64,000 nt of DNA from an uncultured bacterium (GTDB taxonomy: Bacteria > Bacillota > Clostridia > Christensenellales > CAG-917). The DNA lies in assembly GCA_949432885.1 (NCBI GenBank), contig CASQXY010000002.1:98252-162251 (forward strand), in the 5' to 3' direction. The notes beneath the pieces are model-generated. The model was not told the origin of the DNA. It ran no database searches and worked only from the letters and a program-made list of their open reading frames with translations. Shown piece after piece: positions 2,763-47,778 of the stretch (position 1 is the stretch's first letter; every line of letters starts with the position of its first letter). The position numbers and the translations under genes are program-made.

Positions 2763-2996
2763 TTACAAGTTTTCGTTTATAAGCTCGTCTGCGGTCACTT
2801 TGAATATCGAGCACAGCCTGCGCAGCATTTCGATATTAGGTTCGGTGCGGTCTTGCTCCCGGTTGGCATAACAGCTTTCTACTACGCCCAGGATCATAGC
2901 GACCTGCTTTTGAGTCATTCCGCGCTCCGCACGCGCGGTTTTGAGATTGATGCAAAACGTTTTATCCATATAACTATTATTCGCGCCGCTAGACAA
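2763..2996 (-). CDS. XRE-family helix-turn-helix transcriptional regulator
   Basis: 77-aa ORF with an HTH_3-like core: LKTARAERGMTQKQVAMILGVVESCYANREQDRTEPNIEMLRRLCSIFKVTADEL. The ORF-track start at 2996 is TTG. The ATG at 2969 is an equally plausible start. Confidence 0.85.
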   Translation of the reverse strand: MSSGANNSYMDKTFCINLKTARAERGMTQKQVAMILGVVESCYANREQDRTEPNIEMLRRLCSIFKVTADELINENL

Positions 2997-3002
2997 AACG
3001 TC

Positions 3003-3055
3003 TTGACACTAGACAATTTATCTAGTAAAATTTGTAATTGCAATATAATTGTCTA
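3003..3055 (+). promoter_or_regulatory. sigma-A-type promoter of the LRR lipoprotein gene, overlapped by an inverted repeat (candidate XRE operator)
   Basis: TTGACA (3003-3008), 17-nt spacer, TAAAAT (3026-3031). TAGACAATT (3010-3018) is repeated inverted as AATTGTCTA (3047-3055), bracketing the -10 region in the divergent intergenic space. Confidence 0.55.
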
Positions 3056-3089
3056 TTAAGTAAAATATTTATATAAGGAGAGGCGCGCT

Positions 3090-5624
3090 ATGAAAAAGAA
3101 ATGTTTTATCACATTGATTGTTGCAATCATAATGCTTGTTTTTGTTTTCGTACTGGCGGCTTGCGACGGTGCGGCCGATACCTGCGACAATGCCGATAAG
3201 GGAATAAAGCCGCCCTCTATCGGTGACCACAACGATAACGTAGTGAAGTTGCCCGATATTGACAATCCTACCGTTGAAAATCCCGATGTAAACGCGGGAG
3301 GGAACGGCGCGGATAAAGCGCTTACCTTGGATACAGCATACATACAGGCGGCTGAATTCGGTTATGCGGGCAGCCGAGAGGAATTTGTTGCGACTGTGAG
3401 CGCGGGCAGCAGCGCCGATGTTGACGTACAGTCCGTAAGCGTAAACGACAGCGGCAATGTTATCGTCACGCTTACAAACGGGAAAACCGTCGATCTCGGC
3501 GCGATAGTGTGCGTACACAGATATTCCGATTGGGAGGTAGGGATAGCTCCTACGTGCTCCTCTCTGGGTTACAACTTGCGCATTTGCGATAAGTGCGGCG
3601 ACAAGGATTATGATTTTATCGAGGCAACGGGTCACGTATGGGACGACGGAAAAGTTGTAATCGAGCCGCTTTGCTACAAGGACGGCACTACGCTGTATAA
3701 CTGCACGAAGTGCGGCGCGGCGAAATCAGAGACGGCGGAAATGCTGGGACATAACTACGTAAACGGCGTTTGCGACAGATGCAAGGAGATTGAACCCGAC
3801 GAATGTCTTCGATTCTATCTGAATGACGATGGGACGCATTATATAGTAGATGGAAAATACGAATATCAGGATATTGCCGTGTCGGTCGTTATACCGAGCG
3901 TATACAACGGAATTTCGGTTAAAGAGATTTACAGCAGTGCGTTCAGTAATTATACAAAACTTCGCAAAGTTGTGATATCCGAGGGAATTGAAACTATAAG
4001 TGACCATGCGTTCAGAAACTGCGGAGTACTTGAAAGTGTCAGTATTCCCGAAGGCGTAACTCGTATGGGTAATATGGTATTTATGCATTCAAGTATACAA
4101 AGCATACATCTTCCCCAAAGTCTTACGTCCATAGGCAGGGATTTGGCTATCATGTGCGAGAATCTTGACTATATCGAGGTCGCGGAAGGAAACCCCGTAT
4201 ATCATAGCGCTGACAACTGTCTTATAGAAACGGAAAGCAAGGCGGTAATCTTGGGAACAAACAATAGCGTAATTCCCAAAGATGGCAGCGTCACTTCTAT
4301 CAAAAAGTTTGCCTTTATGGGAAGAACGGGGCTTACGAGCATAAATATTCCGTCGAGTATAACTCAGATAGAAAGCCGCGCATTCGAGCGTTGTTACAGA
4401 CTTGCGGAGGTGTACAACTACTCAGATCTGGATATCGTAGCAGGAAGTTCTGCCAATGGCGGCGGTGTTTCGTACTATGCATTGTACGTATACGGAATAG
4501 ATGATGACGGAAGCAAGCTCATTTCGACGGCGGACGGTTACGTTTTCGACGAGAAAGACGGAGTATATCAGCTTGTAGGTTATCGCGGAAATGAGACGGA
4601 TTTGACGTTGCCCTCCGACATACTGGATCACGATTATACTGTCCGCAACTATGCTTTTTACGGCACGGATATAACGAGCGTAGTCATTCCCGACAGCCTT
4701 GCGGATTTGGGAACGTACACGTTCAAAAATTGCCGCAAGCTCAGAAGCGTACAGCTCGGCAGCGGATTAAACGAAATCGGAGTGAGCGTCTTTGAGAGCT
4801 CCGGAATAGAGAGCATAGTTATCCCGGACAGTATCGCGGCAATAGGCATGTGCGCATTCTGTGAATGTGAAAATCTGCGCAGCGTTCAGTTTGGGAAAGG
4901 TATAACGAAAATCGGGTACAGAGCGTTCGATTATTCGGGACTTCAAAGCATTGTTCTCCCTGACAGCGTGACGGAAATCGGCAGTAGCGTTTTTGACAAT
5001 TGCGCTTCGCTTGAAAGCGTGATCTTGAGTAAGAATATAACCGCAATTCCCGAATATGCGTTTGAGAGATGCAAAGTCCTCAGATATATCGAATTGCCCG
5101 AAGGAATTACCGTTATAGGTCAAGACGCATTCAGCTATTCCGCACTTGAAAGCATAGTCATTCCAAACAGCGTAACTCAAATCGGGCAGGATGCTTTCTA
5201 TTATTGCCGCAGTCTGAAAAAAGCTGTCTTAGGAAAAGGGATTACCGAGATTCCCGCAGGATTGTTCCGCTATTGCGGAAGTCTTGAAAAGGTGAATTTC
5301 GTCGGCGATATTACGCTTATCGGGAATAATGCGTTCTATAAATGTGAAAGTCTCAAATATGTTGTCATACCCGAGAGCGTAACTCAAATCGGAAAATTCG
5401 CTTTCTTCGGCTGCGACAGCCTTAAAAACGTAATATTCGAAGATGCGACGGGTTGGAGCCGCACATATACGGAAGAGGGCTCATCTCCAGAAGCCGTTGC
5501 GGAAGAGACGATTGCCGATACGGAAGATGCGGCTAAACTGCTCAAATGGGGCATCGCCGGATATTATTCGTACAGCTACGTATGGATGAAGCAACCCGCC
5601 GGCGAAAGCGATAACGCGGCATGA
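3090..5624 (+). CDS. BspA-type leucine-rich-repeat (LRR_5-like) lipoprotein with Cys-rich N-terminal repeats
   Basis: 844 aa. Lipoprotein signal MKKKCFITLIVAIIMLVFVFVLAAC (lipobox LAAC). Cys-rich module (CSSLGYNLRICDKCGD..., CYKDGTTLYNCTKCGA..., VCDRCKE). More than 15 repeats of the form I.IP.SVT.IG..AF..C..L. AGGAGAGG RBS precedes the ATG. Confidence 0.88.
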   Translation: MKKKCFITLIVAIIMLVFVFVLAACDGAADTCDNADKGIKPPSIGDHNDNVVKLPDIDNPTVENPDVNAGGNGADKALTLDTAYIQAAEFGYAGSREEFVATVSAGSSADVDVQSVSVNDSGNVIVTLTNGKTVDLGAIVCVHRYSDWEVGIAPTCSSLGYNLRICDKCGDKDYDFIEATGHVWDDGKVVIEPLCYKDGTTLYNCTKCGAAKSETAEMLGHNYVNGVCDRCKEIEPDECLRFYLNDDGTHYIVDGKYEYQDIAVSVVIPSVYNGISVKEIYSSAFSNYTKLRKVVISEGIETISDHAFRNCGVLESVSIPEGVTRMGNMVFMHSSIQSIHLPQSLTSIGRDLAIMCENLDYIEVAEGNPVYHSADNCLIETESKAVILGTNNSVIPKDGSVTSIKKFAFMGRTGLTSINIPSSITQIESRAFERCYRLAEVYNYSDLDIVAGSSANGGGVSYYALYVYGIDDDGSKLISTADGYVFDEKDGVYQLVGYRGNETDLTLPSDILDHDYTVRNYAFYGTDITSVVIPDSLADLGTYTFKNCRKLRSVQLGSGLNEIGVSVFESSGIESIVIPDSIAAIGMCAFCECENLRSVQFGKGITKIGYRAFDYSGLQSIVLPDSVTEIGSSVFDNCASLESVILSKNITAIPEYAFERCKVLRYIELPEGITVIGQDAFSYSALESIVIPNSVTQIGQDAFYYCRSLKKAVLGKGITEIPAGLFRYCGSLEKVNFVGDITLIGNNAFYKCESLKYVVIPESVTQIGKFAFFGCDSLKNVIFEDATGWSRTYTEEGSSPEAVAEETIADTEDAAKLLKWGIAGYYSYSYVWMKQPAGESDNAA

Positions 5625-11398: not shown

Positions 11399-11425
11399 AA
11401 AAACCGCACTTTAAGTGCGGTTTTT
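11399..11425 (+). terminator. intrinsic terminator after transketolase
   Basis: AAAAACCGCACT-TTA-AGTGCGGTTTTT. Confidence 0.8.
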
Positions 11426-11433
11426 GTATAACC

Positions 11434-11645
11434 GAGGTGTAAGTGCTCTACAAGAGTGCACGTCGGGTATTTTGATTTAGATAACCCACCCATTTCCTGC
11501 GTGCTGTTCCGACTTCGCGGTCTGCGAAGCAAGCCCGCTCGTTCGCTTAGGCTAGGCACAATCCGCCGGTTTGTGCGTTTAACGCGTCGCGCCGCTCCCG
11601 CTCGCTCACGAAGTGAGCTTAATTCCATTTATCCGCTCAAATAAA
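11434..11645 (+). repeat. copy A of a structured intergenic element family (other copies at 31604-31910 inverted and 40278-40522)
   Basis: 11434-11491 aligns by hand with the reverse complement of 31854-31910 (GAGG..GTGCTCT.CAAG.GTG.ACGTCGGGTA...ATAACCC). Downstream islands keep the same order: CCCACCCATTTCC; GTTCCGACTTCGCGG (11506-11520) versus rc of 31782-31797; GCTCGTTCGC (11537-11546). The overlapping ORFs are not conserved at protein level between copies. Confidence 0.6.
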
Positions 11646-16958: not shown

Positions 16959-18494
16959 ATGGCAAATAATGACATTCAGACTGTTTTAGTCCTCGATTTC
17001 GGAGGACAGTATAAGGAGCTCATCGCTCGCAGAGTCAGAGAGTGCGGAGTGCACTCGCAGATACTTGCGGGAAGCACCCCGATAGAGAAAATCAAGCAGA
17101 TTTCTCCTATCGGAATTATTCTCACGGGCGGTCCGCACAGCGTATATGAGGATAGCTCTCCGCACACCGTCAAGGAGCTGTTCGAGCTCGGCATACCCGT
17201 GCTCGGGATATGCTACGGCATGCAGCTAATGGCGTATACGCTCGGCGGCGATGTTAGGTCATGCGACGTGAGCGAGTACGGCACAATCAATACGAGCTAT
17301 GACGACAAAGACTGCCCGCTGTTTAAGGGGCTAAGCGAAAACGCCGTAACGCTTATGAGTCATACGGACCGTATTTATGAAACGCCCGAGGGGTTCAAGC
17401 CCGCGGCGCATACGTCGGACTGTCCGATTGCCGCTATGTACGACGAAGCACGCAGATTGTATGCCGTGCAGTTCCACCCCGAGGTCGAGCGCACTAAACA
17501 GGGCACGCAGCTTTTGCGCAACTTTTTGTATGAGGTCTGCGGTGCAAAGGGCGACTACAATATGGACGACTTTATCCAACGCGAGCTTGTGAGAATAAGA
17601 GAGCAGGTCGGCTCGCGGCAAGTCGTGCTGGGGCTCAGCGGTGGAGTGGACAGCTCCGTTTGTGCGGCTATTCTCGAAAAGGCGATTCCCAATCAGCTCA
17701 CCTGTATTTTCGTTGATCACGGAATGATGAGAAAAAACGAAGGCGACGAAATAGAGCGCGCATTCGCGGGCAAGTCGCTCAATTTCGTGAGAGTAAACGC
17801 GGAAGACAGGTTTTTGACTAAGCTCGCGGGGGTATCCGACCCCGAGCGTAAGCGCAAAATAATTGGTGAGGAATTTGTGCGAGTTTTCGAGGAGGAGAGC
17901 GCGAAATTCGCAGGCAGCCTTCTGGCGCAGGGTACGATATATCCCGACGTTGTTGAAAGCGGACTTACGACGGGCGCAGTGATAAAATCCCACCATAACG
18001 TGGGCGGATTGCCAAAGGATACCAAATTCGTCGGACTCGTCGAGCCGCTTAGGTCGCTATTTAAGGACGAGGTGCGCGAGCTAGGCAGAAAGCTCGGACT
18101 TGACGAAACTCTCGTCTCCCGTCAGCCTTTCCCCGGACCGGGACTTGCCGTGCGCTGTATAGGCGAGATAACAAAGGAGCGTCTCGATATACTCCGCGAC
18201 GCAGATTATATTTTCCGCGAAGAACTGCAAAAGGCCGATTTGCATTACGGGCAGTTTTTTGCCGTACTTACCGACATGAGGACGGTCGGCGTTATGGGCG
18301 ACGGTCGCACGTACAATTACGTGCTCGGCTTGCGCGCCGTCATAACCTCCGACTTTATGACCTGCGAGTACGCGCATATTCCCTACGAGGTGCTCGACGT
18401 AGTATCTTCGCGTATCGTGAACGAGGTGAACGGCATATCGAGAGTGGTGTATGATATCACGGGGAAGCCGCCTGCGACTATCGAATGGGAGTAA
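16959..18494 (+). CDS. guaA: GMP synthase (glutamine-hydrolysing)
   Basis: 511 aa. GATase block [12 protein letters not shown]-PPase SGGVDSSV, C-terminal KPPATIEWE. Confidence 0.95.
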
Positions 18495-18496
18495 AG

Positions 18497-18616
18497 CCGC
18501 GCTATTGAGCGAATAACTTTGTTGAGGCACTTTTGCAAACAGCCTAATGTAAATGTAATACATGACTGTTCGCAAAAGTGCCTCTTTCTGGTTCTTCATC
18601 TCGATGTCGCGGTTTT
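18497..18616. repeat. ~120-nt palindromic element R1, abutting the guaA stop codon
   Basis: CCGCGCTATTGAGCGAATAACTTTGT...GTTCTTCATCTCGATGTCGCGGTTTT. Outer 13-bp stem, long inner stem GAGGCACTTTTGCAAACAG/CTGTTCGCAAAAGTGCCTC, T-run. The same flanks recur at 31466-31585 and, interrupted, at 40216-40575. Confidence 0.75.
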
Positions 18617-18747
18617 ATTATACGTTTGCTTGTGAGGAGGAAGTAAAATCTAATTAAAAAAGCATTTTTCTGAGAGGGAATAAAATTAAATACTCGAAGT
18701 GCAGTATTGGGGATTATGTCACATAAAGTTTGACAAGCTCAACATCC

Positions 18748-31454: not shown

Positions 31455-31465
31455 AAACCTAAAAA

Positions 31466-31585
31466 CCGCGATATTGAGCGAATAACTTTGTCAGCGCCGC
31501 CCGCCTGTCACGTCATGTACGTCAGTACATTAGGCTTGCCAATCGGGCGGCGCTTTCGCGTTCTTCATCTCAATATCGCGGTTTT
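31466..31585. repeat. ~120-nt palindromic element R2
   Basis: CCGCGATATTGAGCGAATAACTTTGT...GTTCTTCATCTCAATATCGCGGTTTTT. Perfect 13-bp outer stem. The inner stem CAGCGCCGCCCG/CGGGCGGCGCTT differs in sequence from R1 but still pairs. The element starts 11 nt after the stop at 31454. Confidence 0.75.
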
Positions 31586-31603
31586 TATAATTGCAGTTGG
31601 ATA

Positions 31604-31910
31604 GGAAGTGAATACGACGGGTCGCAGTTCAAGGAGCTGCATAGCGCGTGCAGGGCGCGCGCCTACCTGAGTGCCGAGCTTGACGTTCCGTACAAGTGAG
31701 CGGACATTGTTGTTTAAGTCCGCGAACGAGTGATATAAACAGTGTTCTAAGCTTGTATATGCGAGCGCCGAGTGTCTCCCTCCGCGAGCGACGGAACGTT
31801 AAATAGTGTACGTTCCTAATTCGAGTGGTGGGAGAAAAGCCCGAAGGGAAAGAGGGGGTTATTTCTTTTTAGAGTACCCGACGTACACCCTTGCAGAGCA
31901 CGTCCCCCTC
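31604..31910 (-). repeat. copy C (most complete, inverted) of the structured intergenic element family
   Basis: The reverse complement aligns in blocks with 11434-11645 and 40278-40522. Examples: ACGACGGGTCGCAGTTCAAGG (31614-31634) versus rc of 40491-40511; CGAACGAGTGATA (31724-31736) versus 40390-40402; hairpin GCGGAC/GTCCGC (31700-31705/31718-31723) replaced by GGGGCA/TGCCCC in copy B. Confidence 0.65.
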
Positions 31911-31925
31911 AGCTTGATAAAGTTT

Positions 31926-32147
31926 TTATTCCAAAAACTTAGACAGGTTCAATTTCGCCTGATAAGCGTTGTACAATTTTCTAGCGGTGAAATAGAATTC
32001 CGCCGTCGTGCCTTTCGGCAGACGGCGCAGACACCAAATCAGTTTAGCTTCCCAATCGTTAAGGTGCGTTCTTACTTCTTCATACAGCTTTTCGTAATCT
32101 ATTTTCAATTCGGGAGATAACTTCCATTGTCTGTTATATTTTTCCAT
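31926..32147 (-). CDS. hypothetical small protein (73 aa)
   Basis: ORF only. AT-rich. No motif recognised. Confidence 0.4.
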   Translation of the reverse strand: MEKYNRQWKLSPELKIDYEKLYEEVRTHLNDWEAKLIWCLRRLPKGTTAEFYFTARKLYNAYQAKLNLSKFLE

Positions 32148-40215: not shown

Positions 40216-40575
40216 GCGCTATTTGGCGATATGCTTTGTCAGAAGCATTTTTGCTCACCGCATATCGTTAATGCAATGACCCCTTTCCGCAGGGTTTCCC
40301 ACAATCGCGTTCTCCCTGCTCATACGGGAGGAACCCATGCTTTATGGGTGACACCTGCGTTCGGGGGCGACAGCATAGAGCACTCATTATTTCACTCGTT
40401 CGGGGCAATAAAACACAGCTTGCCCCTCGCTTGTACAAAGAGCAGTCCTCGAAACCGCGCTCTCCTCGCCCTGCGCGTCGCGGTGCAGTCCCTTGAATAG
40501 CGACTCGTCGTGTACGTCTCCGCATAAGCCGAGTGCAACGGCGGAAAGTGCTTACAAAATCTCAATATAATATAT
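40216..40575 (+). repeat. composite repeat: third copy of the palindromic element, split by copy B (40278-40522) of the long structured element
   Basis: Left flank GCGCTATTTGGCGATATGCTTTGTCAGAAGCATTTT resembles the R1/R2 5' flank GCGCTATTGAGCGAATAACTTTGTCAG. Right flank GAAAGTGCTTACAAAATCTCAATAT resembles the 3' flank CTTTC..GTTCTTCATCTCAATAT. The interior aligns with copy C. Confidence 0.6.
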
Positions 40576-42029: not shown

Positions 42030-42088
42030 CGTTAAAGCAATATCCGAAAGGACGAAACTGCAATGGCATAAAACTAAATAAAAATTGC

Positions 42089-42116
42089 AAAAAGCCGCGA
42101 TTAACGCGGCTTTTTG
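42089..42116. terminator. bidirectional intrinsic terminator after glgA
   Basis: AAAAAGCCGCG-ATTAA-CGCGGCTTTTT. Confidence 0.8.
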
Positions 42117-42203
42117 TATAAATAAACTATGAAATATGATATTTAATCGCAAAACATGATGCATTTGTTTCGTGATATTTCAAACAAAAGAAGTTTAAAA
42201 ATT

Positions 42204-43015
42204 TTATGCCCTAATATTCTTATCGGAACAGTGGACTACGAGCCGTTTTGTTTTGTGATTCCACTGCTTTCCCTTTTTTATGCCTTTCCACTGTTTGGAC
42301 GTGCCGTCGTAAAAAATATCTCTAAGACACTCGCAAAAATCAAAAGCCAGCCAGCCGATTTCGGTTACGCCCGAAGGAATGGTGACGCTTTTAAGATTGC
42401 TGCATAAAGTGAATGCGGCATTATCTATAAGATTCACTTCGCTCGGAATTTCTACGCTTTCAAGTTGTATGCATGAACTGAACGTTTGCGTTTTCTTAAA
42501 ACATATAAAGATATCGTACGGCTGCGTCGTAGCCTTGATTTTTCTATAAGTGGATTTGGCGGCGATGAGCTTTGCGACAAGCGATTTATAGTTTTCAAGT
42601 CTTTCGCTAGAACAGTTTATCGCGCCTAGATAATTTGGAGAAGTTTCGATGTCGGTGGAAACTATGTCATAAAAGGACGGGAAAGTTTCGCCTTGCGCGT
42701 TCGTCTCGAATATTACGCGCTGCTCGCAAAGGAGAAGCTCCCAATAAACGGAAGATAAGTCGCGGTTTTCGTATTTTTTCAACAAACGGCGGCAGGTAGC
42801 TTCCGCCGCCTTGAAGTTGAGACATTCTCGTAATGTTTGTGCTAGTGTAATAGTTTCAAAGAGCTCGGTATCGGTTTCAAGCTCATAGACGTTATGGTAG
42901 GAACGGCACTCGTAGATATTGTCGGTTGTAAGTTCCAGTCTGCCTCCGCATTAGGGCATTTTCTTTGTTTTAGTTGCTGCAAGACGGTTTCCTCTGTTTT
43001 AGTATATGACGGTAT
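42204..43015 (-). pseudogene. decayed paralogue of the zinc-ribbon/TIR/LRR gene (start lost, frameshift, TIR core and most LRRs deleted)
   Basis: ORF 42204..42785 aligns with aa 79-169 of the 45068..47350 product (VYWELLLCEQRVIFET...PYDIFICFKK). It then jumps directly to a last LRR unit plus cap (DIFYDGTSKQWKGIKKGKQWNHKTKRLVVHCSDKNI). Upstream, KCP (42958-42953) is followed by only 2 nt before CGGRLEL...YECRSYHNVYEL, a 1-nt deletion inside the CPxC zinc knuckle. The codon matching Met1 is ATA (43015-43013). Confidence 0.8.
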
Positions 43016-43130
43016 TATTGCAGCATATCCGACATAAGCAATGCAACGAGGTTTTTCGTTGAAAGGAAACGGATTACCTGTTTTACATTTCTCTTTATGT
43101 TTGTTATAATAAAAAGCAAATTCAAAGGTT

Positions 43131-44903
43131 ATGTCAAATATGAACAATCAAAAAAACAAAGCAAACAATCGTAATTCGAGTCTGCTAAGGAGATTCGTCG
43201 GCTATTACAGACCGCACAGAAAGCTGTTTATCATCGATATGATATGCGCTTTTGTCATATCCGTTTTCAATCTCGTATATCCCTACGTGACCAAGGAAAT
43301 CATCAACAACTACGTGCCCAACAGACTGCTCAATATGCTTATCGTCGGCGCGTGTCTGCTGCTCGGCTTTTACATTCTCAAATCAGTGCTCAACTTCGTG
43401 CTTCAATACTGGGGACACCTCGTGGGCGTGAGAATGCAGGCGGATATGCGCGCCCAGCTTTTCGGACATCTGCAAAAGCTGCCGTTCTCCTACTTCGACA
43501 ACAACAAGACGGGCGTTATAATGAGCAGAATGACAAACGACCTCTTCGAGATATCCGAGCTTGCCCACCACGGTCCGGAAGACGTGTTTCTGTCCTTGGT
43601 GACGATAGTGGGTTCGTTCATTATGCTGGCGTTTATCAACGTATATCTCGCGCTCATAGTGTTCGCATTCATTCCGCTTATAGTGATATGCACGGCGCTT
43701 ATGCGCAAACGTATGAACAGGGTGTTCGGCGAAGTGCGCGTAGTGCAGGGCGAGGTCAATGCGGATATAGAAAGTGCGATATCGGGAGTGCGCGTGTCTC
43801 GCGCATATACCGCGCAGGAGCATGAGAGCGGAAAGTTCGGGCGCGGCAACAAAAAATTCGTCGAGGCGAAGAGCAGACAGTATAGAGTCATGGGCGAGTT
43901 TTTCTCGACGATGATGTTTTTGATGGATTTTCTGTATTTCGCGGTGCTTATCGCGGGAGGTCTTTTCTTCTATTACGGCAAAATCGACGCTGGCGAGTTT
44001 ACCGCGTTCGTGCTGTATATAAGCACGCTCATCACTCCTATAAGAACTCTGACCACTATATTTGAGCAGATACAGGACGGCGCGACGGGATTCAGACGAT
44101 TCTGCGAGATTATGGACATAGAAGAGGAGTCCGAGTGCGAGAATGCCGTTGTTCCCGACAAGCTGAACGGCAATATCGTATTCGACGGAGTTACGTTCGG
44201 TTATGAGGCGTCGGACGGGAAAAATGTCATATCCGATTTCTGTATGAATGTGGAGGCGGGGAAGACAGTTGCGCTGGTGGGACCGTCGGGCGGCGGCAAG
44301 ACGACGATATGTCACCTTATTCCGCGCTTTTACGAAATCGACGGAGGTAGCATAACCATAGACGGTTATGACGTGAAAACGCTCGACAGACAGGCGTTGC
44401 GCAAGAATATCGGCATCGTCCAGCAAGATGTATTTTTGTTCAACGGAACAATAAAGGAAAATATAGCTTACGGTAACTTCGAGGCAAGTGACGAAGAGAT
44501 TATAAATGCGGCAAAGGCGGCGAATATACACGAGTACGTTATGAGTCTTCCCGACGGCTACGAAACGAACGTAGGAGAGAGGGGAGTCAAACTCTCGGGC
44601 GGACAAAAACAGAGGGTGTCCATCGCGCGCGCATTCCTCAAAAATCCGCCGATTTTGATATTGGACGAGGCGACTTCCGCTCTCGACAACGCGACGGAAA
44701 TGCTCATACAGGACGCGCTCAACAAACTGTCGGAAGGCAGAACGACAATTGTCGTCGCGCACAGACTGTCGACTGTGAAGAATGCCGACGAAATAATCGT
44801 CGTCACTCAAAAGGGAGTTGAAGAGCGCGGCAGCCACGAGCAGCTCATCGCCAAAGGCGGACTGTACAAAACTCTCTACGAGTATCAGTTGCTCAACGAG
44901 TGA
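43131..44903 (+). CDS. ABC transporter, fused permease/ATP-binding protein (MsbA/multidrug-exporter type)
   Basis: 590 aa. Six-TM ABC_membrane domain. Walker A GPSGGGKTT, Q-loop IGIVQQDVFLF, signature LSGGQKQR, Walker B ILILDEATSALD, H-loop VVAHRL. Confidence 0.92.
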   Translation: MSNMNNQKNKANNRNSSLLRRFVGYYRPHRKLFIIDMICAFVISVFNLVYPYVTKEIINNYVPNRLLNMLIVGACLLLGFYILKSVLNFVLQYWGHLVGVRMQADMRAQLFGHLQKLPFSYFDNNKTGVIMSRMTNDLFEISELAHHGPEDVFLSLVTIVGSFIMLAFINVYLALIVFAFIPLIVICTALMRKRMNRVFGEVRVVQGEVNADIESAISGVRVSRAYTAQEHESGKFGRGNKKFVEAKSRQYRVMGEFFSTMMFLMDFLYFAVLIAGGLFFYYGKIDAGEFTAFVLYISTLITPIRTLTTIFEQIQDGATGFRRFCEIMDIEEESECENAVVPDKLNGNIVFDGVTFGYEASDGKNVISDFCMNVEAGKTVALVGPSGGGKTTICHLIPRFYEIDGGSITIDGYDVKTLDRQALRKNIGIVQQDVFLFNGTIKENIAYGNFEASDEEIINAAKAANIHEYVMSLPDGYETNVGERGVKLSGGQKQRVSIARAFLKNPPILILDEATSALDNATEMLIQDALNKLSEGRTTIVVAHRLSTVKNADEIIVVTQKGVEERGSHEQLIAKGGLYKTLYEYQLLNE

Positions 44904-44973
44904 CTTATCGATAGCGGTTCATAATTCAGTTATGAGAATTGTAGGATATAATAGAAAACGAAGTTGATGCAAT

Positions 44974-45001
44974 AAAAACCGCAGTTAAACTGCGGTTTTT
45001 G
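44974..45001. terminator. bidirectional intrinsic terminator (ABC / TIR-LRR convergent pair)
   Basis: AAAAACCGCAG-TTAAA-CTGCGGTTTTT. Confidence 0.8.
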
Positions 45002-45067
45002 CTGTATTAAATGCTTTTATATAGCAAATCATATGATTGATACTGAGTGAATAATAGACAACTTATA

Positions 45068-47350
45068 TTAGAAAATCGATTTTTTCAAATCACCGTCGGT
45101 GCAATGTACTACATATTTACCTGTGCCGGCATGCCACTGATTTCCTTTGTATATCTTTTTCCATTCCTTAGTTGTACCGAGATAGTTGATATCCATAAGT
45201 CTGCTACAACCCTTGAATGCACGGTAATCTATGCTCGCCACGCTGTTCGGGATCATAATACATGTAAGCTCGCTACATCCTTCAAACGCACTGTAACCTA
45301 TTTTGGTCGCGCCAATTGGAATCGTGATACCTTCAAGTTTGCTACATCCTAAAAAGGAATAATTGCCTATGCTAGTTACGCTTCCGTCATTAGGTATTAT
45401 GCTGTTTTGGCAACCGATAACTAACGTCTTGCTTGAAGTTTCTATTATACAGTTCCCATCACTATGGTATTTTGCATTACCTCTTGCAACCGTTAAATTT
45501 GTAAGCGAATCGCAATTGCTGAATGCGCTCCAAGCGATATCCGTTACGCTGTCGGACATGATTATGCTTGTAAGTTTGGCGCAACCCTCGAAGGCATTCC
45601 AGCCTATCCTTTTCACGGAATTGGGAATAAGAGCGTCTGTCAGATTCTCTTGATTTCTGAATTGACTGTCTTTTATTTCCGTTGTACCCTCGGGGACGAT
45701 ATAATTCGGTTTAACAATTTTTATGGGTGCGGGAGCAGCAGGCTTTGCGACGGGCGCGTTTTTGATGATATTTCCGTCAGAGCAGTGAACGGTATAATCC
45801 TTGGTTTGCAAATCCCAACCGTTTACTTTGGTTATAGCATTCCAGTCCGTTTTTGTGCCTTTATAGTATATGTGTTCGAGTTGCGAGCAAAACGAAAGAG
45901 AGTCCGCACAGATATCCGTTACGCTTCGTGGAATGGTTATGCTTTTCAGATTTTCACAGCCGTTGAGAATCCATTCGTTTATCATTTTCAAATTGTCGGG
46001 CAGCACAATATTTGTCAAGCCCGTATTGGAGAACGCATCTTCTCCGATTTCATGCACACTGACCGGAAGGCTGATAGCCGTTAAATTTATACAATTGTCA
46101 AACGCGAAATCGCCAATCGAAGTTACACCGTTGGGAATCTCAACCTTTGTCAATTCCGAACAATCGGCAAATGCAAAATTTCCGACGCGTTTCACCGTAT
46201 TCGGGAGAGCGATTTCCTTCAAATCGGTACGCTCCTGAAATTCGTAATCTCCTATTTCTTTTGTGCCGTAGGGAACAATATAGTTTTGCACCGCGTTTTC
46301 CTTAGCAAGTTTTTGGGTAGCAATTTGTTGATTTGTCGGTTGCATATCAGGCGCGTTTTGTCCTGCGAATTGCTTTGAAAACGCTTCCATCATTTCCGCT
46401 TTGATTTTTGCGGCAAGTTCCGCCTCTCTGTCCACGGGATTCAGTATAGCTTTCACTGCCTGCGTAAGATTGTACAGCAAGCCTATATCGTCTCTTATCC
46501 CTTGGCAGCTTCTCAGCTCGTCGGGAAGCTGTTCAGGTTGGAAGTTGTTGCGGAAGATTGGAATTATAGATTTAGTCTGTGAAGTCGTGTTGCTCATCAT
46601 CTTGAAGCGAGACCACTCGTTCTTTACCCACTGCGAATTTATGTACGCGCTCTGCGAACAAATTATTATCATAATCTTCGCCGTATACAGAGCATGGTAG
46701 ATATTCGGCTCATATTCTCTTACTACGATATTGTTCAAAGACCTCTCGCTGAAAAATACCCTGTAATCGTCGTTGAGTTTGTTGTATAAGTCCATTGCGA
46801 GCTGGTAATCCTTGGTGAGTTTGGACGGGTCTTTTGTGGAAGATTTCTTGAAGCAGATGAATATATCATACGGCTTGGTCGTCTCGTTTATAGTCCTGTA
46901 CTGCTTTTTCGCAAGGTGCATTTTGTTTACAAGACTTACGTACGTAGAAATATTCGCGGGATTAAACTTGTTCGCGTATGAAATAGTCTGTCCGTAATAT
47001 TCGGACTCGTCTATTTCGGTTGCGGATATATCGTAAAAAGAGGGGAATTGCTCGCCGTTCTGGTCAGTCTCGAACATAACGCGCTGTTCGCAGAGGAGTA
47101 AATTCCAATAAACGTCTGTCAGGTTATCCCCGTCATATTCTTTGAGGAGCTTTTTATAAAGTAGTTCCGCCTGTTTGAAATTGAGGCTTTCGCGAAAGGT
47201 GGAAGCCAGCTCTATATCATGATACAGATTGGCGTTGCGTTCGTTGAGCTCATAAACATTGTGACAGGAACGGCACTCGTAGTTATTTCCCGACAGCAGA
47301 TCCAATTTACCGCCGCAGGTAGGACATTTTTTTTGCGTGAATGTGGGCAT
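45068..47350 (-). CDS. cytoplasmic zinc-ribbon / TIR-domain / tandem BspA-type LRR protein
   Basis: 760 aa with no signal peptide or TM segment. CPTC...CRSC zinc ribbon (aa 9-29). TIR-like block at about aa 160-290 (nt ~46481-46873): YDIFICFKK, RVFFSERSL, KIMIIICS, SQWVKNEWSRF. Two LRR_5-like modules, each ending in a Y.GT...W......W....Y.VHC.DG cap. GAGGGA RBS. Confidence 0.85.
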   Translation of the reverse strand: MPTFTQKKCPTCGGKLDLLSGNNYECRSCHNVYELNERNANLYHDIELASTFRESLNFKQAELLYKKLLKEYDGDNLTDVYWNLLLCEQRVMFETDQNGEQFPSFYDISATEIDESEYYGQTISYANKFNPANISTYVSLVNKMHLAKKQYRTINETTKPYDIFICFKKSSTKDPSKLTKDYQLAMDLYNKLNDDYRVFFSERSLNNIVVREYEPNIYHALYTAKIMIIICSQSAYINSQWVKNEWSRFKMMSNTTSQTKSIIPIFRNNFQPEQLPDELRSCQGIRDDIGLLYNLTQAVKAILNPVDREAELAAKIKAEMMEAFSKQFAGQNAPDMQPTNQQIATQKLAKENAVQNYIVPYGTKEIGDYEFQERTDLKEIALPNTVKRVGNFAFADCSELTKVEIPNGVTSIGDFAFDNCINLTAISLPVSVHEIGEDAFSNTGLTNIVLPDNLKMINEWILNGCENLKSITIPRSVTDICADSLSFCSQLEHIYYKGTKTDWNAITKVNGWDLQTKDYTVHCSDGNIIKNAPVAKPAAPAPIKIVKPNYIVPEGTTEIKDSQFRNQENLTDALIPNSVKRIGWNAFEGCAKLTSIIMSDSVTDIAWSAFSNCDSLTNLTVARGNAKYHSDGNCIIETSSKTLVIGCQNSIIPNDGSVTSIGNYSFLGCSKLEGITIPIGATKIGYSAFEGCSELTCIMIPNSVASIDYRAFKGCSRLMDINYLGTTKEWKKIYKGNQWHAGTGKYVVHCTDGDLKKSIF

Positions 47351-47379
47351 ATTTCCCTCGCATGGTTTGAATTACATAA

Positions 47380-47409
47380 ATCGTATCACCGAGGAAAGAA
47401 AATTGTCAA
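47380..47409 (-). promoter_or_regulatory. candidate promoter of the TIR-LRR gene
   Basis: Minus strand: TTGACA (47409-47404), 18-nt spacer, TGaTACGAT (-10 hexamer at 47385-47380). Confidence 0.4.
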
Positions 47410-47556
47410 GCGAGGGTTGCCGAATATATGTGCTTGATAGAGTAAGTTGGATCTATTCACTCGCACAAAGTGTGAGACATTCGGCGTCATCGCATATTTA
47501 GATCTGACAAACAAAACGCGCGAATTTACTTCGCGTTCTGGGTTCCCGCAAACGTC

Positions 47557-47610
47557 TATTGTTCCGTTGAACAAAAACACATCCTGCTGAACGATGCCGA
47601 CCTGTTTGCG
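47557..47610 (-). pseudogene. relic of a second ABC-transporter gene (Q-loop fragment only)
   Basis: The minus strand reads CGCAAACAGGTCGGCATCGTTCAGCAGGATGTGTTTTTGTTCAACGGAACAATA (..KQVGIVQQDVFLFNGTI..). This is roughly 85% identical by hand alignment to 44400-44453 of the intact ABC gene (RKNIGIVQQDVFLFNGTI). No similarity extends on either side. Confidence 0.7.
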
Positions 47611-47655
47611 GGGCAAATGGGTTACGGTTGGCGAAAAAATATATTATATAGATGT

Positions 47656-47684
47656 TTGACATATCTTGCGTAAATAAGTAAAAT
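47656..47684 (+). promoter_or_regulatory. sigma-A-type promoter of glgP
   Basis: TTGACA (47656-47661), 17-nt spacer, TAAAAT (47679-47684). Confidence 0.6.
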
Positions 47685-47778
47685 ATTAGTCGGTTGCGTT
47701 AATAATATGTTTGAATATATTATAATAAGGCATAATTTACTTTCGTCCGGGGGGGAAAGCGGAAGGAAGGTAGGTAAT

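Follow-up and report, generated by a model that had tools for sequence, protein, structure and literature searches.

The intergenic stretch at 31604-31921 (minus strand) of the 64-kb stretch of DNA analysed here (the window) raises the question of what kind of element it is. A preliminary description, made from the sequence, had grouped it (copy C) with two other stretches, copies A and B, as a family of three copies, either of an unclassified structured RNA or of a non-autonomous mobile element. With each copy as query in a sensitive blastn search of the window, copy C was found to be 66% identical to copy B over 171 nt (E 1e-12) and 70% identical to copy A over 88 nt (E 7e-9), and no other comparable similarity was seen in the 64 kb. 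An nhmmer profile built from 23 family members matched copy C at 31634-31875 (E 6e-52) and copy B at 40265-40501 (E 1e-13), close to the full profile in each case. With its filters switched off, a covariance model of the 3' core returned only C (31619-31793, 126.7 bits) and B (40336-40506, 88.1 bits) in the window, and the next-best match reached 7.8 bits. The kinship of the three stretches is real and far beyond chance, and the sequence islands quoted for them are present where they had been placed. The count of three complete copies stands for C and B only: B, at first taken to match in its 3' part, is full length, and A is a fragment.

Each element forms one ordered unit, some 250 nt long and reaching about 550 nt where optional domains are present. 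Its modules follow one another from a leader through a 5' domain and a core to a 3' hairpin (H_D) and tail; the 5' domain is closed by a pyrimidine-purine helix (T2:R, or H_A), and the core centres on H_B, a long irregular hairpin whose upper stem is hypervariable and whose A/C-rich loop is conserved. The four modules occur together in a constant order, and solitary ones lie almost all at the edges of the sampled loci; a loose, BIME-like mosaic of independent modules is ruled out, as the modules are nearly always together and in order. Polarity is fixed, with distinct 5' and 3' domains, and the element is not a palindrome.

Copy C carries all parts on the minus strand, namely leader, 5' domain, core, 3' domain and tail, and the similarity of its leader to copy A reaches 31921. 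The leader hairpin GTGCTCT-GCAAG-GGTGTAC (31883-31901), described previously together with its counterpart in copy A (11443-11461), is borne out in both, as are the positions of the GAGGGGG/CCCCCTC arms described as enclosing it in C; the GAGGGGG arm beside the hairpin (31904-31910) can pair with a partner inside the first pyrimidine tract, T1 (CCCCCUCU, 31851-31858). T1 is the mirror of the second tract, T2 (UCUCCCACC, 31827-31835), and the parallel complement of the purine tract R (GGAGGGAGA, 31775-31783); T2 forms the 5' strand and R the 3' strand of H_A, which closes the 5' domain. Between T1 and T2 lies a small hairpin, CCC-UUC-GGG (31840-31848), in place of which other subtypes carry CCGG-ACACG-CCGG. 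The conserved core block CACUGUUUAUAUCACUCGUUCG (31723-31744) comprises the direct repeats DR1 and DR2 and supplied the pattern for the genome scan. It is followed by H_B (31700-31723), recognised by covariation, with its A/C-rich loop and the variable stem GCGGAC/GUCCGC at 31700-31705/31718-31723, as first proposed. Beyond it come a conserved block with DR3 (CUCACUUGUAC, 31690-31700), hairpin H_D (31645-31663), which has a conserved GC-CYU-GC apex above a covarying lower stem, and a tail island (CUUGAACUGCGACCCGUCGU, 31614-31633) shared with copy B.

Copy B (about 40265-40511, plus strand) is more diverged and occupies the glgD-glgA spacer. Its tracts T1 and T2 lie at 40280-40288 and 40296-40303, its core block at 40381-40402, DR3 at 40426-40436 and its tail at 40492-40511; the H_B stem GGGGCA/TGCCCC at 40402-40407/40421-40426 agrees with the preliminary description. 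Copy A (11421-11604, plus strand) is a 3'-truncated 5' fragment. It retains the leader hairpin, T1 (11484-11491), an optional domain of 83 nt (domain (i), 11511-11593) and GCTCCCGCTCG (11594-11604), where it ends; it is devoid of R, the core and the 3' domain, and is not matched by the core covariance model. Over 184 nt it is 84% identical to the 5' portion of a complete copy from a related metagenome-assembled genome (MAG; locus L036, 707-532).

Optional domains occupy fixed positions within the element and are placed so that the host helix stays intact. Domain (i) occurs at one position only, inside this element, which rules it out as an independent nested element. Many leaders contain GUGCG. 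The most conserved part of the element is central, not subterminal, and in a second subfamily DR2 differs while the loop motif CAACAACAC is still conserved; the apparent invariance of the core is in part an artefact of the exact-pattern search. Element copies contain no ORF, none is interrupted by a gene-sized insert, and no internal promoter or terminator was found within the element. An inverted-repeat search of four full copies with their flanks recovered internal stems only, with no terminal inverted repeats. The ends are fuzzy: similarity between copies fades at variable points and grades into 33-nt repeat units, and the upstream flanks share no motif except A/T richness. A hidden small gene was considered, since ATG-TCA-CTC-GTT-CGC (M S L V R) is a possible reading of the core, and was rejected: the window copies and several others have ATA or ATT in place of the ATG, the stop codon is likewise not conserved, and a ribosome-binding site is lacking. 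The template and variable repeat pair of a diversity-generating retroelement was likewise dismissed, since mismatches between copies also fall at non-adenines.

Covariation, which the preliminary description had named as the test of its compensatory stem changes, is strong in two hairpins. In H_B and H_D together, 96.4% of cells are paired in a set of 39 sequences, compared with 29-41% in slid controls, and 113 cells show a double change where shuffles give 35; in a set of 72 sequences the paired fraction is again 96.4% (22-51% in slid controls), with 212 double-change cells against 56. A third helix, H_A, shows four compensated variants, and in other subtypes the T2:R pairing is compensated as TCTTCC/GGAAGA or TTCCCCT/AGGGGAA. 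The fold is thus conserved through compensated changes between subfamilies. Within H_B, mismatches in single copies are A.C at least as often as G.U, and stem variants are largely genome-specific, so that selection acts on master copies and not on the individual copies, which decay neutrally one by one. The stems are almost exclusively Watson-Crick and therefore both strands can fold. In one 3-bp helix, G.U pairs make up 32 of 117 cells at the subfamily level, which hints at the folding of one particular strand and would fit RNA. Two further pairings were discarded: a CUUG/CAAG helix after the core lacks covariation and is disrupted in one lineage, and a pseudoknot joining the UUGUU block to the H_B loop would have complementary strands in the main family and the window lineage, but not in two other lineages.

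The family is not confined to three copies, and dozens exist beyond the window. When species-representative genomes were scanned for exact matches to the core-block pattern (22 positions, 18 of them specified), 52 loci were recovered, of which 50 lie in 11 Christensenella-like MAGs. Many copies are present per genome, and one MAG has 20 core copies or more. Among relatives sampled as 8-kb pieces around the pattern matches, the profile search gave 68 matches and the covariance model 72 core copies, often two to four per 8-kb locus. Several MAG copies contain runs of N, and one complete MAG in the set measures 1.65 Mb. No element was found in the phage, plasmid and viral collections searched, and an association with phages or plasmids was set aside because those collections gave no matches. 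The preliminary description could not place the element in a known class, and no Rfam 15 family matches it: at the gathering threshold the whole window yields a tmRNA only and 11 of the loci tRNAs only, while copy C and a copy with all optional domains, scanned at permissive E-values, return sub-threshold snoRNA or miRNA noise only. A literature search found no earlier account of it. The element is previously undescribed and lineage-specific to Christensenella-like Clostridia.

Copies are intergenic and occur in either orientation, with a preference for the 3' ends of genes: in tandem spacers 16 copies are sense and 11 antisense, and a further 14 copies lie in convergent and two in divergent spacers. 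No orientation bias was seen with gene direction as a proxy for replication. The neighbours of copies are housekeeping genes with no common functional theme, and gyrB, argS and corC lie between paired copies. A second hairpin repeat family lies within 200 nt of 16 of 61 copies, a fraction that rules out an obligatory link between the two. Copy B lies between co-directional genes of the glgC-glgD-glgA operon, where read-through transcription is expected. No transposase, integrase or reverse transcriptase gene is present in the window, no TnpA, TnpB, IscB or recurring ORF or neighbour protein was found in about 460 kb around some 60 copies, and no RAYT (Y1 transposase) gene was seen in the window or in those loci.

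Comparison of close relatives shows that the element is gained, lost or replaced. The glgD-glgA spacer measures 391 nt with the element in the window and 85-89 nt in relatives (GlgD 88-89% identical) that lack the element, and other relatives hold different repeats there; across relatives with 85-94% identical GlgD the spacer is empty or carries unrelated repeats, and strains with identical GlgD have a different, core-less allele. At L062 a copy is found in the next spacer, on the opposite strand. Other pairs of filled and empty spacers measure 389 nt (L012) and 30 nt (L053), and 659 nt (L041) and 45 nt (L049). These two pairs, and the window compared with L061-L062, differ over the whole spacer with junctions that are unreadable, and the homology breakpoints show no visible direct repeat; deletions or allelic exchange could in part account for the spacer differences. 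Short patches are homogenised between the copies of a genome, probably by gene conversion, as at L001, where five differences are clustered in 34 nt of an otherwise identical 471 nt, and at L002, where a strain otherwise 98% identical has the whole of hairpin H_B exchanged for another.

Both alternatives of the preliminary description, unclassified structured RNA and non-autonomous mobile element, receive support, and the evidence leans to the latter. The element is best explained as a lineage-specific, non-coding, non-autonomous dispersed structured repeat of Christensenella-like Clostridia, comparable to BOX, bcr1 and ERIC, to which we give a probability of roughly 0.55; it is most likely selfish and dispersed rather than a gene for a regulatory RNA. 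We lean to a dispersed or mobile element because of its presence, absence and allele replacement between relatives, its occurrence in either orientation, its lack of a promoter and the neutral decay of its copies. Functional structured RNAs, acting in cis on mRNA stability, processing or polarity, or in trans by binding or titrating a protein through the A/C-rich loop and CACU repeats, would accord with at least three covarying helices, subfamily-level G.U pairs in one small helix, the preference for gene 3' ends and the transcription expected for copy B inside its operon. Optional domains that spare their host helix and a loop motif kept even in the second subfamily are further points for such RNAs; these domains and the conserved loop and core, being also expected of a functional RNA, count against the repeat reading. 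However, the absence of an internal promoter or terminator speaks against functional RNAs, and the 16:11 ratio in co-directional spacers means that about 40% of copies would be transcribed antisense. The empty, unrelated or core-less state of the glgD-glgA spacer in relatives indicates that no gene needs the element, single copies gather unpaired A.C mismatches, and the flanking genes share no functional theme, so that we regard functional RNAs as fairly unlikely. A new class of structure-dependent mobile nucleic acid, a multi-domain folded single strand (RNA or ssDNA) in which the core (CACU repeats and H_B) would be recognised by a putative enzyme acting in trans and the 5' domain clamped by a pyrimidine-purine-pyrimidine triple helix, or alternatively a family of mobile protein-titrating RNAs, seems to us distinctly unlikely.

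An element that acts as DNA, either as a binding site for a host protein that organises the nucleoid, in the manner of gyrase or IHF at BIMEs, or as non-B DNA such as an intrastrand triplex of T1, T2 and R, would suit an orientation indifferent to transcription and near-exclusive Watson-Crick stems that let both strands fold; we nevertheless judge it improbable, and we know of no protein that binds the element. T1 is the parallel complement of R over 6-8 nt in all three subtypes (CCCCCTCT/GGGGGAGA, CCCCTT(C)/GGGGAA(G) and TCCCCC(T)/AGGGGG(A)), but the match has a nominal p of about 0.005-0.01 in subtype 1 only and of 0.03-0.66 elsewhere, because the tracts are of low complexity. A triplex is also disfavoured by the ability of T1 to pair antiparallel with R, by loops of 20 to >100 nt, far longer than in described motifs, and by runs of C+.G-C triplets, which are unfavourable at neutral pH. 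The order of the tracts (Hoogsteen, pyrimidine, purine) is that of a 'class IV' intrastrand triplex, and the same study associates these motifs with genomic instability (PMC4666352). The preliminary description had raised an omega-RNA or PATE hypothesis, to be checked through IS200/IS605, IscB or TnpB genes elsewhere in the genome. The copies would then be decayed IS200/IS605 PATEs or orphaned scaffolds of TnpB or IscB omega-RNA, moved by a Y1/HUH transposase with its gene at another place in the genome. The absence of terminal inverted repeats, the lack of a visible target duplication, the conserved one-strand hairpins in a non-coding unit and a length of about 250 nt, as expected of a left end plus a right end, would agree with such an origin, which we hold to be very improbable: no TnpA, TnpB or IscB gene and no recurring ORF accompanies the copies, none has a gene-sized insert, the ends are imprecise and grade into 33-nt units with no fixed short target, and no orientation bias is seen with the gene-direction proxy. 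The conservation peak is moreover central and not subterminal, and the Rfam HEARO and IS605-related models match nothing. ORF-less group II (class C) introns inserted after transcription terminators were suggested by the many copies that lie shortly after terminator hairpins and by GUGCG in many leaders, but terminators precede the element in 8 of 46 cases in sense and 8 of 46 in antisense, there is no domain V-like hairpin and no Rfam group II match even at E up to 5-10, and about 250 nt is too small; this origin is effectively refuted.

Among known systems, the 'MITE-like' BOX of Streptococcus pneumoniae, a modular boxA-boxB-boxC repeat of 67-637 bp, resembles the element in being non-coding, multi-copy, intergenic and non-autonomous, with ordered modules of variable content, a predicted fold and a similar size (PMC3184786). 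The two have no sequence similarity, and the variable part consists of optional domains at fixed fold points in the element, whereas in BOX it is the number of boxB units; the mobilisation of BOX is attributed to a named IS, ISStso1, and the element has no known candidate for this role. With bcr1 and other bcr repeats of the Bacillus cereus group it shares a lineage-specific occurrence in Firmicutes, a distribution not conserved between close strains, and compensatory changes that keep a multi-hairpin structure while single copies lose stability (PMC3184786); bcr1, however, is about 155 bp long and flanked by 5-bp direct repeats, whereas the element measures 250-550 nt with no target duplication seen. 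In common with BOX- and bcr1-type repeats it is lineage-specific, non-coding and modular, with a non-conserved distribution and a structure kept by compensatory changes; transcription, a further feature of such repeats, is predicted for copy B by read-through. ERIC/IRU and REP/BIME repeats of enterobacteria likewise lie at gene 3' ends in either orientation, are mosaic, are passively co-transcribed (predicted for the element) and have other small repeats clustered alongside (PMC3184786, PMC4666352). Unlike REP, which are palindromes of 20-40 bp, and ERIC, an imperfect palindrome of 127 bp, the element is non-palindromic, has no terminal inverted repeats and has fixed polarity; nor does it match a REP/BIME unit (a 20-40-nt imperfect palindrome with a GTAG/CGTC-type tag, in inverted pairs), as its unit is at least 250 nt with no independent inverted modules. 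PATEs and omega-RNAs share with it strand-specific hairpins and the lack of terminal inverted repeats; they also have no target duplication, and none was visible for the element. The element has no associated gene, imprecise ends, no guide-like variable flank and no Rfam match. The BoxC/TM triplex motifs of Holder et al. (2015) are similar in having three one-strand tracts in the class IV pyrimidine-motif order and in being repeated at variable loci; their spacers are 1-6 nt, as opposed to 20 to >100 nt and structured in the element, of which the tracts are only a small part (PMC4666352). Like MITEs, the element is small, non-coding and multi-copy and is present or absent between relatives, but the terminal inverted repeats of MITEs are absent from the four full copies.

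As a dispersed structured repeat, the element may multiply from a few master copies, mobilised in trans by a putative enzyme that would recognise a folded single strand (DNA or RNA) together with the conserved core. Recombination and gene conversion between copies would then spread and reshuffle them. Transposition is only putative, since the analysis recovered neither a mobilising enzyme nor a target-site duplication, and neither defined ends nor a clean empty site. Individual copies would be mostly neutral passengers, and those that are read through, such as copy B in the glgC-glgD-glgA operon, may incidentally change mRNA folding and stability, an effect reported for ERIC and BOX elements.

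For RNA biology the element provides a clean multi-helix fold that covaries well and has no entry in Rfam, and for the biology of mobile elements a repeat that has neither inverted ends nor a visible partner gene. Christensenella-like bacteria are prominent gut organisms, mostly uncultured and with small genomes, and their intergenic spacers are crowded with at least three families of structured repeats that turn over between strains. The element is a possible strain-level marker as well as a source of assembly breaks, and it explains complete spacer differences inside conserved operons of near-identical strains.

Three intergenic loci in the window had been put forward in the preliminary description as a three-copy family. 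Their mutual similarity is real. In sensitive blastn searches with each copy against the whole window, copy C (31604-31921, minus strand) matched copy B (about 40265-40511, plus strand, in the glgD-glgA spacer) with 66% identity over 171 nt (E 1e-12) and copy A (11421-11604, plus strand) with 70% identity over 88 nt (E 7e-9), no other match in the window had a comparable score, and the quoted islands and stems were found at the positions described. A profile built from 23 family members aligned over almost its full extent with copy C (31634-31875, E 6e-52) and with copy B (40265-40501, E 1e-13). When both strands of the window were searched with filters off, using a covariance model for the 3' core, C (126.7 bits) and B (88.1 bits) were the only two matches, against 7.8 bits for the runner-up. 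Copy A (184 nt) shares 84% identity with the 5' portion of a complete copy from a related MAG (locus L036). It has the leader hairpin and first pyrimidine tract plus one inserted domain of the optional kind, and stops before the core is reached; of the three loci in the window, two are thus full copies and one is a fragment truncated at its 3' end. A 73-aa ORF (31926-32147, minus strand), which several assemblies annotate as a gene and which has no Pfam match, directly precedes copy C and itself follows a histidine kinase/response regulator pair. The tmRNA gene at 2131-2494 (Rfam RF00023, 147.8 bits) is unrelated to the element.

Exact protein matches assign the window to uncultured Clostridia MAGs (GCA_948721515.1, JGI 3300006217). 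The family extends well beyond these three loci. A single scan of species-representative genomes with the pattern CACTNNTTATNNCACTCGTTCG gave 52 loci, 50 of them in 11 MAGs that include Christensenella sp. UBA7588 (17 loci), UBA7571, the complete 1.65-Mb Christensenella MAG CP091723.1, 'uncultured Clostridiales/Clostridia' and a few bins under other names. The other two, in Acidiferrales and Nanoarchaeota, are chance matches where the rest of the element is absent. The 8-kb pieces fetched around the loci contain 68 copies by profile and 72 by covariance model, often several per piece; both counts are lower bounds, as the DNA searched was the surroundings of exact pattern matches, a selection that also exaggerates the apparent invariance of the core. 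The pattern is absent from 19 of the 72 model matches, and five of these form a second subfamily in which CACGCGCUUUG replaces CACUCGUUCG while the adjacent UUAUGCCAC, the loop motif CAACAACAC, CUUGUAC and the 3' hairpin are retained.

Read on its own strand, the element begins with a leader (..AGAGUGCGUCGUAACUCCUCUAAAUGCAA..), which in the window lineage forms the hairpin of the preliminary description. The pyrimidine tract T1 (CCCCCUCU) follows, then a small hairpin (CCGG-ACACG-CCGG or CCC-UUC-GGG), a second pyrimidine tract T2 (UCUCCC), the mirror of T1, a variable stretch with one or two hairpins, and the purine tract R (GGGGGAGA). The core reads CGGCACUCGCAUAGA.AAGUAUCGUU-CACUYRUUAUGYCACUCGUUCG-[hairpin H_B]-CUCACUUGUAC, and the 3' part consists of CGUCAAGCUCGGCGCUC, the hairpin H_D with a fixed apex (GC-CYU-GC) and a tail. 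The optional domains, of which there are three (about 50, 85 and 150 nt), are confined to the same three points; that of copy A is the 85-nt one, which interrupts the 5' strand of the T2:R helix, and the helix survives. The four basic modules are seldom found apart or out of order, which makes the element a single unit and excludes a loose mosaic of modules. The tail grades into repeat units of about 33 nt. Tandem units of this length (GTGCGTGTATAAGTACGCTTTGAATGAG...) flank many copies on either side, as in L034 (about 700-880), L042 (about 2950-3130), the upstream flank of L032 and the tails of many copies; they resemble both leader and tail, so that the ends of the element grade into arrays.

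Compensatory stem changes, reported earlier for the window copies, hold for the whole family. In a MAFFT alignment of 39 copies, scored for H_B, H_D and one 3-bp helix, 96.4% of cells are paired, against 29-41% with partners slid by 1-3 columns, and double-sided changes occur in 113 cells against 35 +/- 4.5 after shuffling (0 of 500 shuffles reach 113). A model-guided alignment of all 72 copies, which is biased towards the structure, gives 96.4% against 22-51% and 212 double-change cells against 56 +/- 6. H_B has about 10 fully compensated versions of its upper stem, among them CCAACGA/UCGUUGG, CCGACAA/UUGUCGG, CAAGUGC/GCACUUG, CCGAUGA/CAUCGG, GGGGCAAU/..UUGCCCC and GCGGAC/GUCCGC, and the T2:R helix, which reaches 12 bp in one subtype, has four (UCUCCC/GGGAGA, UCUUCC/GGAAGA, UUCCCCU/AGGGGAA and CCCCU/AGGGG). 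A proposed CUUG/CAAG helix was unsupported. Nothing resembling the element was found in Rfam 15, in phage or plasmid collections or in IMG/VR contigs, and we found no description of it in the literature. The repeat family is real, well covarying and apparently undescribed.

Stem versions are mostly genome-specific, and among single-copy mismatches A.C is no rarer than G.U, so the fold is kept up in the lineages from which subfamilies arise, while single copies drift. Changes between strains are patchy. Locus L001 differs from copy C by five substitutions packed into 34 nt, the remaining 437 nt being identical, and in L002 (3882-4059) the entire H_B, stem and loop (window 31700-31723), is swapped for a compensated GGGAGCGA/UCGCUCCC in a region otherwise 98% identical. 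These changes look like short gene-conversion tracts between dispersed copies.

In all three subtypes T1 is the parallel complement of R (CCCCCTCT/GGGGGAGA, CCCCTT(C)/GGGGAA(G) and TCCCCC(T)/AGGGGG(A)), hence T1 and T2 are mirror repeats; in copy C the pyrimidine pair lies at 31827-31858 and the purine tract at 31775-31783, and the tracts change in step between subtypes. T1, T2 and R follow one another as the Hoogsteen, pyrimidine and purine tracts do in a 'class IV' intrastrand pyrimidine-motif triplex (PMC4666352). The parallel match exceeds shuffles in subtype 1 only (p ~0.005-0.01), a weak statistic because the tracts are of low complexity, and T1 can also pair conventionally with R or, in copy C, with the leader GAGGGGG. 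An intrastrand triplex is therefore recorded as a possibility and not as a finding.

Comparison of flanks among the fetched loci revealed filled and short versions of the same spacers (L012, 389 nt, vs L053, 30 nt; L041, 659 nt, vs L049, 45 nt) between flanks of 79-94% identity. Copy B offers the clearest case of turnover, in a glgB-glgC-glgD-glgA operon that is conserved throughout while its glgD-glgA spacer varies. This spacer is 391 nt in the window and includes the element; it is 85-89 nt, without the element, in relatives with 88-89% GlgD identity, holds two copies of a different hairpin repeat in one relative at 86%, and contains yet other sequence at 85% and 94%. In L065, the relative at 94%, a tandem repeat unrelated to the element (..CGGCGCAAATCAC.GCGCAAC..CCGCAAGGCGGTTAT..; unit roughly 200 nt) follows glgD at 3152-3579. 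L062 carries an element copy in the following spacer, glgA-glgP, on the opposite strand. Strains with GlgD identical to that of the window have another allele, a 250-nt spacer with leader, T1, 85-nt domain and 3' tail and no core, possibly the product of a deletion between two GCGTCGCG repeats. Filled and short spacers differ throughout, so a clean empty site or target duplication is not readable.

A second repeat family of about 130 nt is present at 18489-18617 and 31455-31590. Its members are long hairpins whose ends are perfect inverted repeats of 17 nt (AAAACCGCGATATTGAG ... CTCAATATCGCGGTTTT); they contain conserved TTGAGCGAATAACTTTGTCA / GTTCTTCATCTCAAT blocks and have T runs after them on both strands, which gives them the look of bidirectional terminators or of a MITE. 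There are 23 copies in 12 related loci, often adjoining the main element, and two copies fill the glgD-glgA spacer of L063. The glgA-glgP distance is about 125-550 nt in four relatives (L061-L064) vs about 5.6 kb in the window (42030-47700), where a BspA-type LRR fragment (42204-42785, minus strand), an ABC transporter (43131-44903) and a TIR-domain plus LRR protein (45068-47350, minus strand) are encoded; the stretch has the appearance of an insertion specific to the lineage and possibly connected with defence.

The window is ordinary chromosome (spo0A, purine genes, tRNA synthetases, the glg operon) and has no transposase, integrase or reverse transcriptase. The element contains no ORF, no internal sigma-70-like promoter or intrinsic terminator and no terminal inverted repeats; no copy has a gene-sized insert, and no protein family recurs near copies, the genes between paired copies being gyrB, argS and a CorC-type transporter. 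Terminators lie upstream of 8 of 46 copies in sense and 8 of 46 in antisense. By codon-aware gene calls, co-directional spacers hold 16 sense and 11 antisense copies, convergent spacers 14 and divergent spacers 2. Together, the missing ORF, signals and inverted ends, the lack of a recurring neighbour gene and the mixed orientation speak against reading the element as a cis-regulatory RNA, as an RNA gene of its own or as an element of the IS200/IS605 or group IIC type, and they fit bacterial interspersed repeats tolerated at gene 3' ends. That the element is a functional RNA is unlikely, and that it acts at the DNA level is less probable still. For want of inverted ends the element does not qualify as a MITE, and it also fails defining tests for REP/BIME, group II introns and PATE/omega-RNA, the last being a suggestion of the preliminary description. 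Several MAG assemblies break or are N-padded exactly inside copies (L023, L054, L017, L011), and the element appears to cause assembly gaps in these genomes.

The closest analogues are BOX, bcr1 and ERIC (PMC3184786), which belong to other Firmicutes and to enterobacteria and are likewise structured, modular and restricted to their lineages. The element has the defining features of this loose kind, being non-coding, multi-copy and modular, with compensated structure and non-conserved distribution. Its likeliest history, to which we give slightly better than even odds (about 0.55), is that a few master copies were amplified with the help of a putative trans-acting factor reading the folded strand; recombination would then spread and homogenise the copies, most of which would be neutral.
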